A stretch of 29,129 bases of DNA, from the NCBI GenBank assembly GCA_023247345.1, contig JAHFGR010000003.1:1-29129 (forward strand), in the 5' to 3' direction. The notes beneath the pieces were generated by a model, which did no database searches, had not been told where the DNA came from, and saw only the letters and a list, made by a program, of their open reading frames with translations. The position numbers were made by a program, and so were the translations under genes. Shown here in pieces: positions 2,242-8,537 of the stretch. This stretch comes from Candidatus Micrarchaeota archaeon (lineage in GTDB: Archaea; Micrarchaeota; Micrarchaeia; Anstonellales; Bilamarchaeaceae). Positions within the stretch are counted from its first letter, which is position 1; each line of letters begins with the position of its first letter.

Positions 2242-3724
2242 TCAAACGGTGTCTACTGCTTTCAGACCTTCAAAGAAATACATCTTTGTTCAAGGTTTTA
2301 TAGTTTCGCTTATAATTCTTATTTACTTCGGAGATATTATCCTTAGCTCTCCTATATTAATTATTTTTGTAATAGGAATCGGACTAATTAGCTCGTTAGT
2401 AACCTATTATACCAGTCATTATGAGGTTCGCGATAATGGTGTATTCATAAAAAAAGGCCTAATAATGCGTAACCAATCCTTATTTCTTTTTAATCAGATA
2501 CAGGATGTAGAAGAGTATCGTGGTTTCTGGGATCGTATATTTGGCCTTGGAAACTTAAGAATTGTTACCATGAGCGGTTCATCTATGTTAAAAGGAGTAG
2601 TTAGTGGCCTAGAAGACGAAGATGCCAAAAAATTTAGGAGTATGGTTATCGGAAACATAAACCAATCTGCAGCAAAATCCTTACCTGAATCAGTTGCGCA
2701 AGCAGGTGCTAGCATTCGAGACGTTCGCGTTTCTCCATACAAAATACAAGTTGAAAAAGGTGTGATGTCTTCGATGATCGTGTTTATCCTGCTTTCTTTT
2801 TTTGTGTTTATCTTGCTTTTGGTATTTTCCGGATTTCAGAATATTGGTATCTATATACTAGGCATCATACTCTTCAATCTGTTCTTTTTGTTTATTAGTT
2901 ATATCTCTATTAAGCCATACGATTATTCAGTGGGCAAAGACTGGTTACAATTACGTTATAAATTTTTAGCAGAACAAGTTTCAAATTATCGTTTTGACAG
3001 AATCCAGAATGTTGTAATAAGACAGTCATGGACGCAAAAACTTACTGGTGTTGTATCATTGCTCGTTGAGACGGGTGAAGGCAATGTTTATAACTCAGGA
3101 GCGCGTGGCAGTGCTGCTAGAATTGCAACTTCTATTCCTGCCTTGACTCTGGAAGATGCATATGCTCTGAAGAACGACATATTGAAAAGCATGGGAGTGC
3201 TGGCAAACATATCCACGCAAGAAAAACTTGTTAATTTACGTGACTCGTTTCCGCTAGATAGTCAAAAGTCATTAAAGAAAACCATTTCTTTTATGTTCTA
3301 TTTCACATTCTTTGGTTTAATTGTAGCTTTTTTAGCATTCAACTTCGGTCCAACAGGTCTAAAATCTTACGGATTGACTGGTATACTGATAATCTCTACA
3401 ATTGTATTTTTTATTGCTTTTTTTATAAAATATCTCTACGAGGTTTCTTATTTCAAAAACTACTCATATAAGACGACACAATCTTTTCTTACAATAAAAA
3501 AAGGCGTTCTTGGTTACACCGAGGTTTTTCTTCCCTACTCTCGCGTGCAAAATGTCTTTCTAGACATGGATATTTTTGATCGCATTTTTACTCTGCGAGA
3601 TGTCCATTTATCTACAATCGGGTATACTTCCGTGCTACGTGCACATATTGATGGTATTAGCCCTGATAATGCGGAAAAATTAAAGAACACTCTTTTGGAT
3701 TATTATAAGAAAAATAAAAAATAA
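2234..3724 (+). CDS. Membrane protein with three bPH_2 modules, YdbT-like
   Basis: Three repeats of 2 TM + (Y...V.IKKG...F..IQ.V......DRIFGL)-type domains; start overlaps the upstream stop, suggesting coupling. Confidence 0.85.
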   Translation: MIDQTVSTAFRPSKKYIFVQGFIVSLIILIYFGDIILSSPILIIFVIGIGLISSLVTYYTSHYEVRDNGVFIKKGLIMRNQSLFLFNQIQDVEEYRGFWDRIFGLGNLRIVTMSGSSMLKGVVSGLEDEDAKKFRSMVIGNINQSAAKSLPESVAQAGASIRDVRVSPYKIQVEKGVMSSMIVFILLSFFVFILLLVFSGFQNIGIYILGIILFNLFFLFISYISIKPYDYSVGKDWLQLRYKFLAEQVSNYRFDRIQNVVIRQSWTQKLTGVVSLLVETGEGNVYNSGARGSAARIATSIPALTLEDAYALKNDILKSMGVLANISTQEKLVNLRDSFPLDSQKSLKKTISFMFYFTFFGLIVAFLAFNFGPTGLKSYGLTGILIISTIVFFIAFFIKYLYEVSYFKNYSYKTTQSFLTIKKGVLGYTEVFLPYSRVQNVFLDMDIFDRIFTLRDVHLSTIGYTSVLRAHIDGISPDNAEKLKNTLLDYYKKNKK

Positions 3725-5416: not shown

Positions 5417-5431
5417 AAACGCTCCTGCCGA
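5417..5431 (-). repeat. Duplicated tRNA-Glu 3' end (att-like direct repeat, distal copy)
   Basis: AAACGCTCCTGCCGA at 5417-5431 is identical to 7018-7032. On the minus strand it is tRNA positions 62-73 (TCGGCAGGAGCG) plus TTT. Confidence 0.75.
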
Positions 5432-5523
5432 ACAGCCAACTTCAGATTAGATGCTTCGTCCAATCATACAATATCATGCATAAATGAATAAGTCCAGTTG
5501 ACCTAAGATGGTCGTTTAACAAA

Positions 5524-6903
5524 TCAGAACAGTTTCTCAATTGCTTTCAAATCAAACAATAGCAGAGTAGGGTCTTTCAGATCCTGTTTGAAGCTCTTGG
5601 CAAAAAATGCATAGTGGATTTGATACTTATCAAACAAAGGCAGGGAATTTACCTTTTCTTGAGTATCTGTCAATAGCTGCTTAGCCGAAACGTTGTTTTC
5701 CCATTTGCATTCAACGACCAGCAGTTTTTTCTCTTTTATATTAACCGCAACTCTATCTATCTCAATTGGAGTTCCATCCCTGGATTTATCCCAAAAATTT
5801 GCAATTCTTTCAAAATTGAACGGCAATTTATTTGAATTGTTCATTTTAATCAAAATTTCTTCAATAACCTGCTCGAATTTCTTTCCTACAAAGGCATTGA
5901 GCAATATCTTATCAGCCACTTTCTCGTTGTTTCCCATCTCTAAATCCGAAAGGTTAGGATTGACAAACTTAAACCAGAAATCAAAATAGTTATCCTTGAT
6001 AGAGTAGCGGGCCTTTTTCTTGTTTTTTTCATAGAACAGGGGGTAATTCTTTGAAACATACTGGAGGCGGATTAAGGTATTAAGATATTTATTGAGATTT
6101 CTTGGATCAACACCTATTGAATCACTTAATTCCTTTACAGTAGTTTTTCCTGCTGCCAAAGCTTCAAATATGGCAAAATAAACTTTGACATCATTGAATT
6201 CCTGGTTAAGAACAAATTTAGGTTCCTCATATAAAATGTACCCTTTGGAAAGAATTTTTTGCTTTACATTTTCCATTACAGATTGTTTATCATTGAATTC
6301 CTGCAGATAAAGAGGAATCCCCCCACCCACTGAATATGCTTCTATTTGCTTTTCTAAATCATATCCAGGAAAGAACAACCTGGCATGATGGAAAGAAAGA
6401 GGATTAAGCTGCCATTGCCCGGTCCGCCTTCCGTATAAAGGACTTTTATATGATAGTACCCGATCTTCCATCATTGAAATGCTTGAGCCGCATAAAATAA
6501 GGCAAATATTGGAATTTTTAAGTACCTCATCGGTAATTGTCTGGAACTTGGAGGGTATGGATGGGTCATCTTGTATGAGATACGGAAATTCATCAATAGT
6601 AATAATCCATTTTTTTCCCTGTTTTTTAAGGTATTCGAAGGTTTCTTTCCATCCTTTGAAGGAAATTCCTTCCTGGCCTAAAGCTTCTGCAATTCGTGCT
6701 GAAAACTTTTCAAAATTGTGATCAACATTTCCTCTTTCTGCAAGGAAATAAACTGAATTCTTCCGTTGGCTAAATTCCTTTATGAGTTCTGTTTTTCCTA
6801 CGCGTCTCCTTCCGTACAAAACAATCAACTGGAACTTAGGCTCTTTGTAGCGGTCTTCCAGAAACTTAAGCTCCTCTTGACGATCGATAAAAATCATAAT
6901 CAT
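5524..6903 (-). CDS. Archaeal ATPase (ATPase_2-type P-loop) with winged helix and C-terminal DUF234 (PD-(D/E)XK-like) domain
   Basis: FIDRQEEL, Walker A YGRRRVGKT, Walker B IDEFPYL, LCGSS, YGRRTG, C-terminal EIDRVA....LLVVECKW. Alternative start 6897. Confidence 0.9.
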   Translation of the reverse strand: MIMIFIDRQEELKFLEDRYKEPKFQLIVLYGRRRVGKTELIKEFSQRKNSVYFLAERGNVDHNFEKFSARIAEALGQEGISFKGWKETFEYLKKQGKKWIITIDEFPYLIQDDPSIPSKFQTITDEVLKNSNICLILCGSSISMMEDRVLSYKSPLYGRRTGQWQLNPLSFHHARLFFPGYDLEKQIEAYSVGGGIPLYLQEFNDKQSVMENVKQKILSKGYILYEEPKFVLNQEFNDVKVYFAIFEALAAGKTTVKELSDSIGVDPRNLNKYLNTLIRLQYVSKNYPLFYEKNKKKARYSIKDNYFDFWFKFVNPNLSDLEMGNNEKVADKILLNAFVGKKFEQVIEEILIKMNNSNKLPFNFERIANFWDKSRDGTPIEIDRVAVNIKEKKLLVVECKWENNVSAKQLLTDTQEKVNSLPLFDKYQIHYAFFAKSFKQDLKDPTLLLFDLKAIEKLF

Positions 6904-7034
6904 ATTATGATATGATCAATTTATAAAACTTATTAAAATATTAATCTCATCTTTTTATGTCTATTTTATTAATCATATTTAAATATGACATAAACAAATA
7001 TGATAAAATAAGAAGTAAAACGCTCCTGCCGAGA

Positions 7035-7091
7035 TCTGCCTTTTAGGAAAAGGCAGCCCAAAACTGCGCCTTTAAATTTTTCTCCTAAAAA
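7035..7091 (-). other. tRNA intron 3, 57 nt, T-loop position 59/60
   Basis: Bulges AA^T and GA^T; 11-bp outer helix TTTTAGGAGAA/TTTTCCTAAAA with one G-U; central helix TTCA/GGCA has two mismatches. The boundary is ambiguous by 1-2 nt (repeated AT); BHB geometry favours 59/60. Confidence 0.8.
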
Positions 7092-7112
7092 TTTGAACTC
7101 GGGTATTCAGAG

Positions 7113-7172
7113 TTCCCTTAAACTTTTTTAGCGAACCAGTTTTTTGTCAACTTTTTTCCCTAAAAAAGTTGA
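7113..7172 (-). other. tRNA intron 2, 60 nt, canonical position 37/38
   Basis: Central helix CTCT(32-35)/AGGG, bulges CA^T and AA^C; AACTTTTTTAG can pair with CTAAAAAAGTT as the intron stem. Confidence 0.88.
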
Positions 7173-7189
7173 TGAGAGTCTGACATCCT

Positions 7190-7201
7190 ATCGGTATAAT
7201 T
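7190..7201 (-). other. tRNA intron 1, 12 nt, D-loop position 20b/21
   Basis: AATTATACCGAT. Central helix CGGT/ACCG, 3-nt bulges CA^A and AT^A, exon helix CC/GG; the intron-side outer helix is minimal (relaxed BHB). Confidence 0.85.
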
Positions 7202-7247
7202 TGACCGGGCTAGATTACAGGAGCACTGTAATATACTTATATATTCT

Positions 7248-7256
7248 CTTTATAAG
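7248..7256 (-). promoter_or_regulatory. Candidate TATA box for tRNA-Glu
   Basis: Minus-strand CTTATAAAG, ending 23 nt before the mature 5' G at 7224. Confidence 0.45.
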
Positions 7257-7283
7257 ATATTTCGTCGCTTCACCAATGATCTC
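7254..7283 (-). pseudogene. Possible remnant of a DUF86/HEPN gene
   Basis: Minus strand reads EIIGEATKYL, like EIIGEASKKI in the HEPN at 13262. An in-frame stop lies 6 codons upstream; only 10 codons match. Confidence 0.3.
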
Positions 7284-7373
7284 CATAGTGACGTCGTCTT
7301 ATATAATCTTAGGCTCCGTCGGCAGTTCTATGCTTTTCACATATCTTAAAAGTTTTATTAGTTTAATAGAACT

Positions 7374-8537
7374 ATGCAAGCTAAAAATGGATTTCTCACA
7401 TCTTTATCAATAAACTTTATTCATAACTTCATAGCTTCTGGAGTGGCAGTGCTTTTGCCCCTATATCTACTAGAGAAAAACGTATCGATTGAAAGCATAG
7501 GGTTAATTTTTTCTGTACTCTCAATAATAATGCTGGTCTTCAGATTCATTTTTGCAGTTATCGCAGATTATATAGGAACGCGCTTAATTTTCATTGGAAA
7601 TGCGATTGCACATGTTGTAACTATTGTAACGTATATTCTCTCAATGACCCCGTTGCATTTTGCATTTGGTAAAATATTCGAAGGATTGCGTGCAGCTGCA
7701 TTCTGGTCAGTTAATAGAACGGAGATATATCGTATAAATGCAAAGGAGGCAGAGAAGAACGCATCAATAATGGGAGCTGTCAGATCTATTAGTACAATTT
7801 TTGGCAGCGCAGCAATTGCAATTGCCTTAATTTTCTTTTCAATTCAAAGCAGCTTTTTATTTTTAATCTTAGCCAGCATTGTTCTGTTCTATTACTCTTT
7901 GAATGTAAAAAATGGAAAAGAAAAGAAAAAATTAAATTTATCTGCCTTTATGACTGAGTTAAAGACAAAACGCAGCAAAGAATTTTGGTCCGCAGCTTTA
8001 ATTTTAAGTATGGCTGCCATATACGAAGCCCCTATCCTTGCGATAGTTATCCCATTATACATGGCGGAATCTTTGAAATCTCAGCCATCAATGATCGGCA
8101 TTGGGCTTGCACTTTATTCTGCCTCTTTTTCATTTGCAAGTTATGTCGCTGCAAAATATAATATGCGTATAAAAAGCATTGCATTCGGAGCGATAATTTT
8201 TGGTACGCTTCCAATTTTATTTATTCAGAATATTTCAGAAAATATTTTCTTGTTAATATTATTCTTATCTGGATTAGGTGGCGGGTATGGTTTGATTAAC
8301 TTAATGGAGATAATCATGGCAAGAACTGTTAAAAATAGTGTTACACCTTCTATTGATGTATCTATCTTAATTATGCCCTACAGACTAGTAGAATTCATAA
8401 CGCTAGCTGCAATCGGTTTTGCAATTATCAATCTTGGATTTTATAATGTATTCTTAGTGCTCGCTTTATCATTTGCCGCATATATATTTCTAGCCTGGAA
8501 ATTCCTATCTAGTTTATCCCAAAAGAATTCGCACTAG
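7374..8537 (+). CDS. Major facilitator superfamily transporter
   Basis: About 12 hydrophobic segments; AVIADYIGTRLIF resembles MFS motif A; substrate unknown. Its 3' end overlaps the convergent patatin gene by 24 bp. Confidence 0.88.
   Translation: MQAKNGFLTSLSINFIHNFIASGVAVLLPLYLLEKNVSIESIGLIFSVLSIIMLVFRFIFAVIADYIGTRLIFIGNAIAHVVTIVTYILSMTPLHFAFGKIFEGLRAAAFWSVNRTEIYRINAKEAEKNASIMGAVRSISTIFGSAAIAIALIFFSIQSSFLFLILASIVLFYYSLNVKNGKEKKKLNLSAFMTELKTKRSKEFWSAALILSMAAIYEAPILAIVIPLYMAESLKSQPSMIGIGLALYSASFSFASYVAAKYNMRIKSIAFGAIIFGTLPILFIQNISENIFLLILFLSGLGGGYGLINLMEIIMARTVKNSVTPSIDVSILIMPYRLVEFITLAAIGFAIINLGFYNVFLVLALSFAAYIFLAWKFLSSLSQKNSH

Follow-up and report, generated by a model that had tools for sequence, protein, structure and literature searches.

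A probably functional tRNA-Glu(CUC) gene split by three introns in a groundwater micrarchaeal genome where nearly all recovered tRNA genes are interrupted

The closest described counterpart of the gene reported here comes from ARMAN-2 (Candidatus Micrarchaeum acidiphilum), which combines disrupted tRNA genes with a splicing endonuclease (EndA) of the epsilon2 type (Fujishima et al. 2011, PMC3239211; Hirata et al. 2012, PMC3488258; Miyata et al. 2025, PMC12397907). In ARMAN-2, 56% of the tRNA genes are interrupted, against 'up to 87%' in archaea with (alpha-beta)2 enzymes, and the ARMAN-2 EndA cleaves a relaxed 13-nt hBH intron at position 59/60 in vitro, the relaxed classes of the bulge-helix-bulge (BHB) motif having been defined in the same study (PMC3239211); residues Tyr236, His251, Lys282, Tyr160 and Lys161 have since been shown to confer activity and broad specificity (PMC12397907). 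A further system to be considered is that of the Thermoproteales, for which the citing passages in PMC4090602 and PMC3239211 describe multi-intron tRNA genes, with up to three introns, as well as 'transposed' introns (Sugahara et al. 2007, 2008; Fujishima et al. 2010).

Here we describe a tRNA-Glu(CUC) gene that runs along the minus strand from 7224 to 7021 of the window, by which we mean the whole 29,129-nt stretch of DNA that was analyzed, and that spends 129 of its 204 nt on introns. Judged by sequence, it can be placed among the archaeal tRNA genes with several endonuclease-spliced introns, as known from ARMAN-2 and the Thermoproteales, and the one hallmark that it lacks is the strict hBHBh' motif, which epsilon2 enzymes do not require. 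As in ARMAN-2, the host (G000 hereafter), an ultrasmall archaeon, belongs to the Micrarchaeota and has a three-unit EndA with the catalytic triad and the ASL residues, introns at 37/38 and 59/60, and strict as well as relaxed motifs, and the 12-nt hBH intron in the D-loop resembles the 13-nt hBH intron of ARMAN-2 at 59/60. The two differ in extent: whereas ARMAN-2, with its 56% of disrupted genes, has at most two introns per gene in the examples shown, the present gene has three, one of them in the D-loop, and 26 of 27 tRNA genes recovered from its genome are interrupted; and its introns belong to repeat families common to several genes and positions. With the Thermoproteales, as far as the citing passages portray them, the locus has in common the presence of similar introns in unrelated tRNAs and positions and the need for a broad-specificity endonuclease. 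Those organisms are GC-rich thermophiles of the Thermoproteota with (alpha-beta)2 enzymes bearing a CSL loop, in contrast to the 37.6% GC groundwater genome of a DPANN micrarchaeon with an epsilon2 enzyme and an ASL loop considered here, in which, unlike in the Thermoproteales as there described, the inserted module occurs in both orientations and also outside tRNA genes. Within the bounds of those same passages, the sharing of introns parallels Thermoproteales intron 'transposition' in another phylum and with another enzyme type.

The ends of the gene are set by its acceptor stem, in which GCTCCTG at the start faces CAGGAGC-G at the end in a perfect 7-bp match 190 nt apart. Once 12 nt are removed from the D-loop, 60 nt from the anticodon loop and 57 nt from the T-loop, 75 nt remain, which ARAGORN identifies as tRNA-Glu(ctc); they form a standard cloverleaf whose D-loop has 11 nt and whose variable loop has 4 nt, and U8, A14, G18G19, A21, U33 and U54U55C56 are all seen in the spliced sequence. 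Exon 1 (7202-7224, minus strand as are all segments that follow; 23 nt) supplies the 5' strand of the acceptor stem, U8 and A9, the 5' strand of the D-stem and the D-loop up to 20b, and is the same in the two congeneric genomes discussed below; it is followed by intron 1 (7190-7201, 12 nt), of the hBH/BHL type, at 20b/21 (or 21/22) in the D-loop. Exon 2 (7173-7189, 17 nt) comprises A21, the 3' strand of the D-stem, nucleotide 26 and the 5' strand of the anticodon stem and loop, including CUC, to A37, where intron 2 (7113-7172, 60 nt) enters at the canonical 37/38 site with a near-canonical BHB. Exon 3 (7092-7112, 21 nt) continues with C38, the 3' strand of the anticodon stem, the 4-nt variable loop, the 5' strand of the T-stem and the T-loop residues UUCAAA; intron 3 (7035-7091, 57 nt), with a relaxed BHB, occupies the T-loop at 59/60, with 58/59 and 60/61 giving the identical product; and exon 4 (7021-7034, 14 nt) closes the molecule with U60, the 3' strands of the T-stem and acceptor stem and the discriminator G73, CCA not being encoded. 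Each boundary is ambiguous by 1-2 nt (20b/21 or 21/22; 36/37 or 37/38; 58/59, 59/60 or 60/61) because A or T residues are shared at the joints, and the product is unchanged by the choice. The initial annotation had read from the letters a tRNA-Glu(CTC) with a complete 75-nt cloverleaf and introns of 12, 60 and 57 nt at 20b/21, 37/38 and 59/60, all of which is reproduced here; its coordinates, 7021-7224, were right, and the strand, which it had left unstated, is minus.

That standard annotation would miss such a gene, and that the open reading frame drawn over it would be spurious, had likewise been anticipated. Unspliced, the locus yields no RNA gene with ARAGORN or with Rfam at the gathering threshold, both of which are blank over the entire window; ARAGORN's intron mode, run genome-wide, also passes it over, and a permissive Rfam scan of 6900-7350 returns sub-threshold chance matches only, e.g., to miRNA and snoRNA families. 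The overlapping ORF (7144-7413(+)) is probably spurious, since it starts with TTG and has no Pfam match, and the real neighbors are an MFS transporter gene (7374-8537(+)) and an ATPase_2/DUF234 gene (5524-6903(-)). Corrected in this way, the annotation gains an essential decoder of GAG, a codon that makes up 26% of the Glu codons of G000 (18.9 per 1000), in place of a probably spurious reading frame. A box C/D RNA within the introns was also considered and set aside, as the plus-strand TGATGA and CTGA elements (~7169-7184) lie just 4 nt apart and antisense to the tRNA.

Independent evidence for the exon-intron structure is provided by relatives. A search of the 204-nt stretch against 40 related genomes located the gene in both congeners, G001 and G002, and orthologues were read and aligned by spliced dynamic-programming alignment. 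The exons are identical in all three species, apart from the discriminator in G002, while the introns differ by 25% or have been gained or lost: G002 is devoid of the D-loop intron, with a contiguous joint GGTCA^AGGAT (the caret marks the splice point), and G001 of the anticodon intron, with a contiguous joint CTCTCA^CTCTGA. These natural intron-minus alleles confirm, to the nucleotide and at the DNA level, the joints predicted for the window. The D-loop intron at the window's site measures 46 nt in G001 and 15 nt in G009 and G022. Across the family, all 12 orthologues give a 75-nt product accepted by ARAGORN as tRNA-Glu(ctc), regardless of whether they carry no intron (G014, G016 and G024), one (G005 and G010), two (G001, G002, G009, G011 and G022) or three (G000 and G004), and the intact 75-nt genes of G014 and G016 score 59-64 bits with RF00005. 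Stem pairing is preserved in 251 of 252 cells of this alignment, with compensatory double changes in 9 of 21 pairs; the exons therefore evolve under the kind of selection that would maintain a functional tRNA, and the introns are gained and lost. In G004, which belongs to another genus, the orthologue (L011:1366-1752) has introns of 112, 146 and 54 nt, the first at 15/16 of the D-loop; these are much longer than those of G000 and the D-loop site differs, which indicates that the gains were independent.

The locus is present in five sequencing runs, all of them groundwater DNA metagenomes. Contigs of runs X1-X3 also contain the three-intron allele, and no intron-less allele of tRNA-Glu(CUC) was seen in the contigs of four runs (X1-X4), where the one intron-less joint reported turned out to derive from a different tRNA gene with a common promoter block. 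A single low-depth contig of 151 nt from X4, which stems from a different groundwater study, matches 7026-7177, and all six of its differences fall within the 3' part of the anticodon intron (7113-7136), with none in exon 3 or the T-loop intron.

We next consider the three junctions in the canonical register, in which residues n-5 to n-2 of the intron are base-paired with X-5 to X-2 of the exon and the bulges consist of X-1, X^i1 and n-1, n^X+1. tRNA position 32 is known to pair with intron position -3, in agreement with this register, and a mirror-image geometry with the bulge 5' of the central strand was rejected for its conflict with that pairing. At the D-loop junction the central helix CGGU/ACCG has 4/4 pairs, with a 3' bulge AU^A and a 2-bp outer helix and without an inner helix, and the 5' splice site falls within an 8-nt loop, giving an hBH/BHL motif. 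The anticodon junction pairs CUCU with AGGG in a central helix of four pairs (one G-U), with the five pairs of the anticodon stem as the outer helix, a 3' bulge AA^C38 and a 9-bp inner helix, AACUUUUUU/AAAAAAGUU, that is displaced by 1-2 nt from the canonical register and has a local hairpin at 7147-7172 as its competitor. The T-loop junction uses the T-stem as its outer helix and has a 10-bp inner helix, UUUUAGGAGA/UUUCCUAAAA, in exact register and a 3' bulge GA^U60, with a central helix UUCA/GGCA that forms 2/4 pairs at 59/60, or 3/4 at 58/59 with a shifted outer helix, and a competing hairpin at 7036-7056. Two other central helices for this intron (the T-loop with intron TTTGGG, and the hairpin base) were tried, and because neither makes a proper two-bulge motif the junction is classed as relaxed. 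Taken against the strict hBHBh' definition of a 4-bp helix between two 3-nt bulges with flanking helices, none of the three junctions qualifies (0/3), and all are accommodated by the relaxed hBH, HBh' and BHL motifs, which (alpha-beta)2 and epsilon2 enzymes accept, so that the range from near-canonical to relaxed given by the initial annotation stands, with the anticodon junction near-canonical, the D-loop junction hBH and the T-loop junction relaxed. The G002 orthologue of the anticodon intron is strict hBHBh'.

A BHB-register score, the sum of central pairs and of capped outer and inner pairs, amounts to 7, 7 and 8 for the three junctions, which places them in the top 2% of controls whose boundaries were shifted by a few bases (mean 2.6; a score of at least 7 in 12 of 622); the 57 introns recovered in G000 average 5.8, and 24 of them have a 4/4 central helix. 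The fold of the whole 204-nt precursor has z = -5.5 relative to shuffles, and its minimum-energy form keeps the acceptor, anticodon and T-stems and favors long-range intron helices over the local hairpins. Those hairpins are stable in both long introns and compete with the splice-competent fold, with alternative folds lying within ~1 kcal/mol.

The genome encodes enzymes suited to such a precursor. EndA is a single 394-aa protein on contig C179, whose residues 6-394 align end to end with the ARMAN-2 epsilon2 enzyme (PDB 4FZ2, E 8.6e-131) and in which catalytic Tyr236, His251 and Lys282, the ASL residues Tyr160-Lys161 and the motifs FRIY, EW(M/I)HSKH, SV(K/R)K and GTYK are all conserved. It belongs by sequence to the broad-specificity epsilon2 type, with three units in one polypeptide and a presumably dimeric assembly, as suits the earlier suggestion that a broad-specificity endonuclease is needed and that the EndA type should be checked; the DPANN archaea, named there among the bearers of multi-intron tRNAs, are indeed the group of the host, as the closest EndA in public genomes is a 95% identical protein labeled 'Candidatus Micrarchaeota archaeon' from Rifle groundwater. 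RtcB is encoded on C5 (E 5e-167), and an archaeal CCA-adding enzyme was found as well. Two shorter, 161-aa EndA-like paralogues (G000:C34:4743-5225(-) and G000:C192:30-512(-)) are 75% identical to each other; compared with A. fulgidus EndA, they read His and Gln at the catalytic Tyr and His positions, respectively, and keep the Lys, and because of these replacements they are probably non-catalytic. The 161-aa paralogue does not track intron load, with homologues in 24 of 24 family genomes.

Transcription could be served by the gene's own signals. A block at 7248-7267 (-), about -43 to -24 from the mature 5' end, combines CGACGA (7267-7262) with a TATA-like CTTATAAAG (7256-7248) centered near -30, and a promoter role for it is suggested by its almost verbatim recurrence upstream of tRNA-Arg(GCG), Leu(GAG) and Pro(GGG) in G000; more generally, most of the recovered tRNA genes have a TATA-like motif at -37 to -30, and T-runs lie downstream of most. 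The T-rich tract TTTTACTTCTTATTTT at 7005-7020 (-), which adjoins the discriminator, is likely an archaeal terminator. In the scheme that we propose, the TATA/BRE-type promoter would give rise to a precursor of ~204 nt, in which homodimeric, three-unit epsilon2 EndA would cut at the 3-nt bulges or loops flanking the 4-bp helix of each junction, tolerating the relaxed D-loop and T-loop motifs; RtcB would then join the four exons, and the CCA-adding enzyme would complete a 75-nt tRNA that reads GAG. We favor this scheme because its parts are present in the genome, with the chemistry carried over from the ARMAN-2 enzyme.

In light of these results, we consider it very probable that 7224-7021(-) is a functional single-copy tRNA-Glu(CUC) gene, whose three BHB-type introns would be cut by epsilon2 EndA and whose exons would be joined by RtcB and completed with CCA; within this reading we infer transcription, the cut sites, the order of removal and the cutting of all three introns by this one EndA. 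It is extremely unlikely that the locus is instead a decaying pseudogene, a tRNA-Glu(CUC) invaded by small repeats and left unprocessed, with GAG read by tRNA-Glu(UUC) or by an unassembled copy. The relaxed T-loop motif and the competing hairpins would fit such decay, as would a hairpin module that also occurs outside tRNA genes in the manner of a generic repeat, an assembly that is 75% complete and a tRNA-Glu(UUC) gene on C8, which has one T-loop intron and is the sole other Glu gene found in G000. Decay is, however, at odds with exons that stay identical in three species while their introns differ by 25% or are gained and lost, with stems that covary across 12 orthologues, with an intact promoter block and terminator and with the presence of the same kinds of insert in almost all other tRNA genes. 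An intact tRNA-Glu(CTC) elsewhere, named by the initial annotation, together with a missing spliced product, as the sign of a pseudogene, was sought in G000 by short-word BLAST and, with an intact orthologue as query, in G000, G001 and G002 (75%, 89% and 92% complete), and no second copy was found in any of the three, so that this route to refutation fails.

It is likewise highly improbable that the gene is real and spliced but that epsilon2 EndA alone does not suffice for all three introns, the T-loop junction needing ordered splicing or refolding, or an extra factor such as the 161-aa paralogue. What could be said for it, namely the 2/4 pairs of the T-loop central helix, the alternative folds ~1 kcal/mol apart and the two non-catalytic-looking EndA paralogues, is offset by the cleavage of relaxed hBH substrates at 59/60 by ARMAN-2 EndA by itself (PMC3239211) and by the occurrence of the paralogue in every one of the 24 family genomes, irrespective of intron load; furthermore, the T-loop intron family recurs in other tRNAs with the same imperfect central helix, which suggests that it is a tolerated substrate. 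The idea that the cloverleaf is a chance product of three freely chosen deletions in AT-rich DNA draws on the many degrees of freedom in three positions and three lengths and on the silence of standard tools; intact 75-nt orthologues in G014, G016 and G024, the nucleotide-level agreement between predicted joints and the intron-minus joints of the congeners, and compensatory changes in 9 of 21 pairs across 12 orthologues have already refuted it, leaving it a negligible probability.

The functional, spliced gene favored above is not exceptional in its genome. Using 63 mature reference tRNAs from G014 and G016 as queries in spliced alignment against G000, we recovered 27 tRNA genes with ARAGORN-validated products, 26 of which are interrupted (96%) by a total of 51 introns: a single gene, Pro(CGG), is uninterrupted, and seven genes have one intron, 13 have two and six have three, or ~1.9 introns per recovered gene on average. 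Being guided by reference sequences, the census could over-split genes, and the interrupted fraction is unlikely to be inflated, because intron-free genes are the easiest to find. The census is also incomplete, as it missed what appears by eye to be a tRNA-Thr(UGU) at ~2930-3250(+) of G000:C27, with D-loop and T-loop introns around a copy of the hairpin module. With 26 of 27 validated genes interrupted, splicing must work in G000, and the three-intron tRNA-Glu(CUC) is ordinary for its genome and lineage. Just five tRNA genes of G000 reach the RF00005 threshold, as do one in G001 and five in G002, where several other members of the family have 36-44, and the 'missing tRNA' counts of such DPANN genomes are on that account artefacts. 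Rfam tRNA counts range from 1 to 62 across the order, in which G001, G004, G010, G015, G017 and G033 (71-97% complete) have 1-5 where sister genera have 36-44; heavy tRNA interruption seems to have arisen, or to have been lost, repeatedly within the order.

The inserts themselves belong to families that cross genes and positions. Three T-loop introns of G001, those of tRNA-Gln(UUG), Gly(GCC) and Gln(CUG), share 89-91% identity over 46 nt with the window's anticodon intron. The window's T-loop intron has relatives in G002 and in the D-, anticodon or T-loops of further G000 tRNAs, with tRNA-Arg(GCG) on C41 and tRNA-Lys(CUU) on C112 among the members of its family; near-identical introns thus turn up in different tRNA genes and at more than one position. 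Of the first 30 nt of the tRNA-Glu T-loop intron of G001, 29 agree with the anticodon intron of G002, and the 3' ends of these two introns differ, each being complementary to its own target loop (UGGA/UUCA and AGAG/CUCU). Common to both families is a hairpin that has a T4-(CCT or AGG)-A4 top, variable covarying lower stems and a flank consisting of CAGTTTTG or its complement. The AGG form adjoins intron 5' ends and the CCT form adjoins intron 3' ends, which means that the module is found either way round with respect to the tRNA that hosts it; at the tRNA-Glu T-loop site itself, G001 has an AGG-type module, in contrast to the CCT-type of G000 and G002.

We tentatively propose, as a reading slightly less likely than not, that the tRNA intron load of this genus, with ~96% of genes interrupted and ~1.9 introns per gene, is about the heaviest yet seen and is driven by a currently mobile module of ~35-60 nt (CAGTTTTG with a variable covarying stem and a T4-CCT-A4 cap), which would insert either way round beside a splice site while a few target-complementary bases at the other end of the intron rebuild the BHB. 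If so, tRNA-Glu(CUC) would be a live record of intron spread, and module copies beside 16S rRNA and protein genes may mark a wider set of EndA substrates. Congeners with identical exons, different intron sets and shared modules constitute a natural experiment on the spread of protein-spliced introns; the genus also illustrates the degree of tRNA gene fragmentation that a broad-specificity endonuclease permits and furnishes a panel of relaxed natural substrates for a structurally characterized epsilon2 enzyme, and it is the near-total tRNA interruption and the orientation-independent module that most deserve further work.

Several observations concern the surroundings of these elements. The hairpin module, with its tail CAGTTTTG/CAAAACTG, is also found on G000:C80 (minus strand, ~416-438 in reverse-complement coordinates), C82, C44 and C46, where copies lie directly after the 16S rRNA 3' end and just upstream of protein genes, e.g., a TFB-like gene on C82; its presence outside tRNA genes makes it a genome-wide repeat that is not intron-specific. 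A ~45-nt promoter block (7226-7275(-); CGACGA ... TTATAAAGAGAATATAT ... TATTAYAGT) is nearly identical 5' of four different tRNA genes in G000 (the present one and those on C41, C107 and C44), which suggests that it was copied along with, or between, tRNA genes. Finally, the 15 nt made up of the tRNA 3' end and TTT (AAACGCTCCTGCCGA, plus strand) recur without mismatch at 5417-5431, 1.6 kb from the copy at 7018-7032 and downstream of the tRNA, and the two copies bracket the single ATPase_2/DUF234 gene (5524-6903(-)). The same slot in G001 holds an unrelated stretch of ~1.4 kb without the 15-nt repeat, only the flank at 5465-5506 being conserved, and the bracketed ATPase slot may be an integration or cassette site at a tRNA 3' end.
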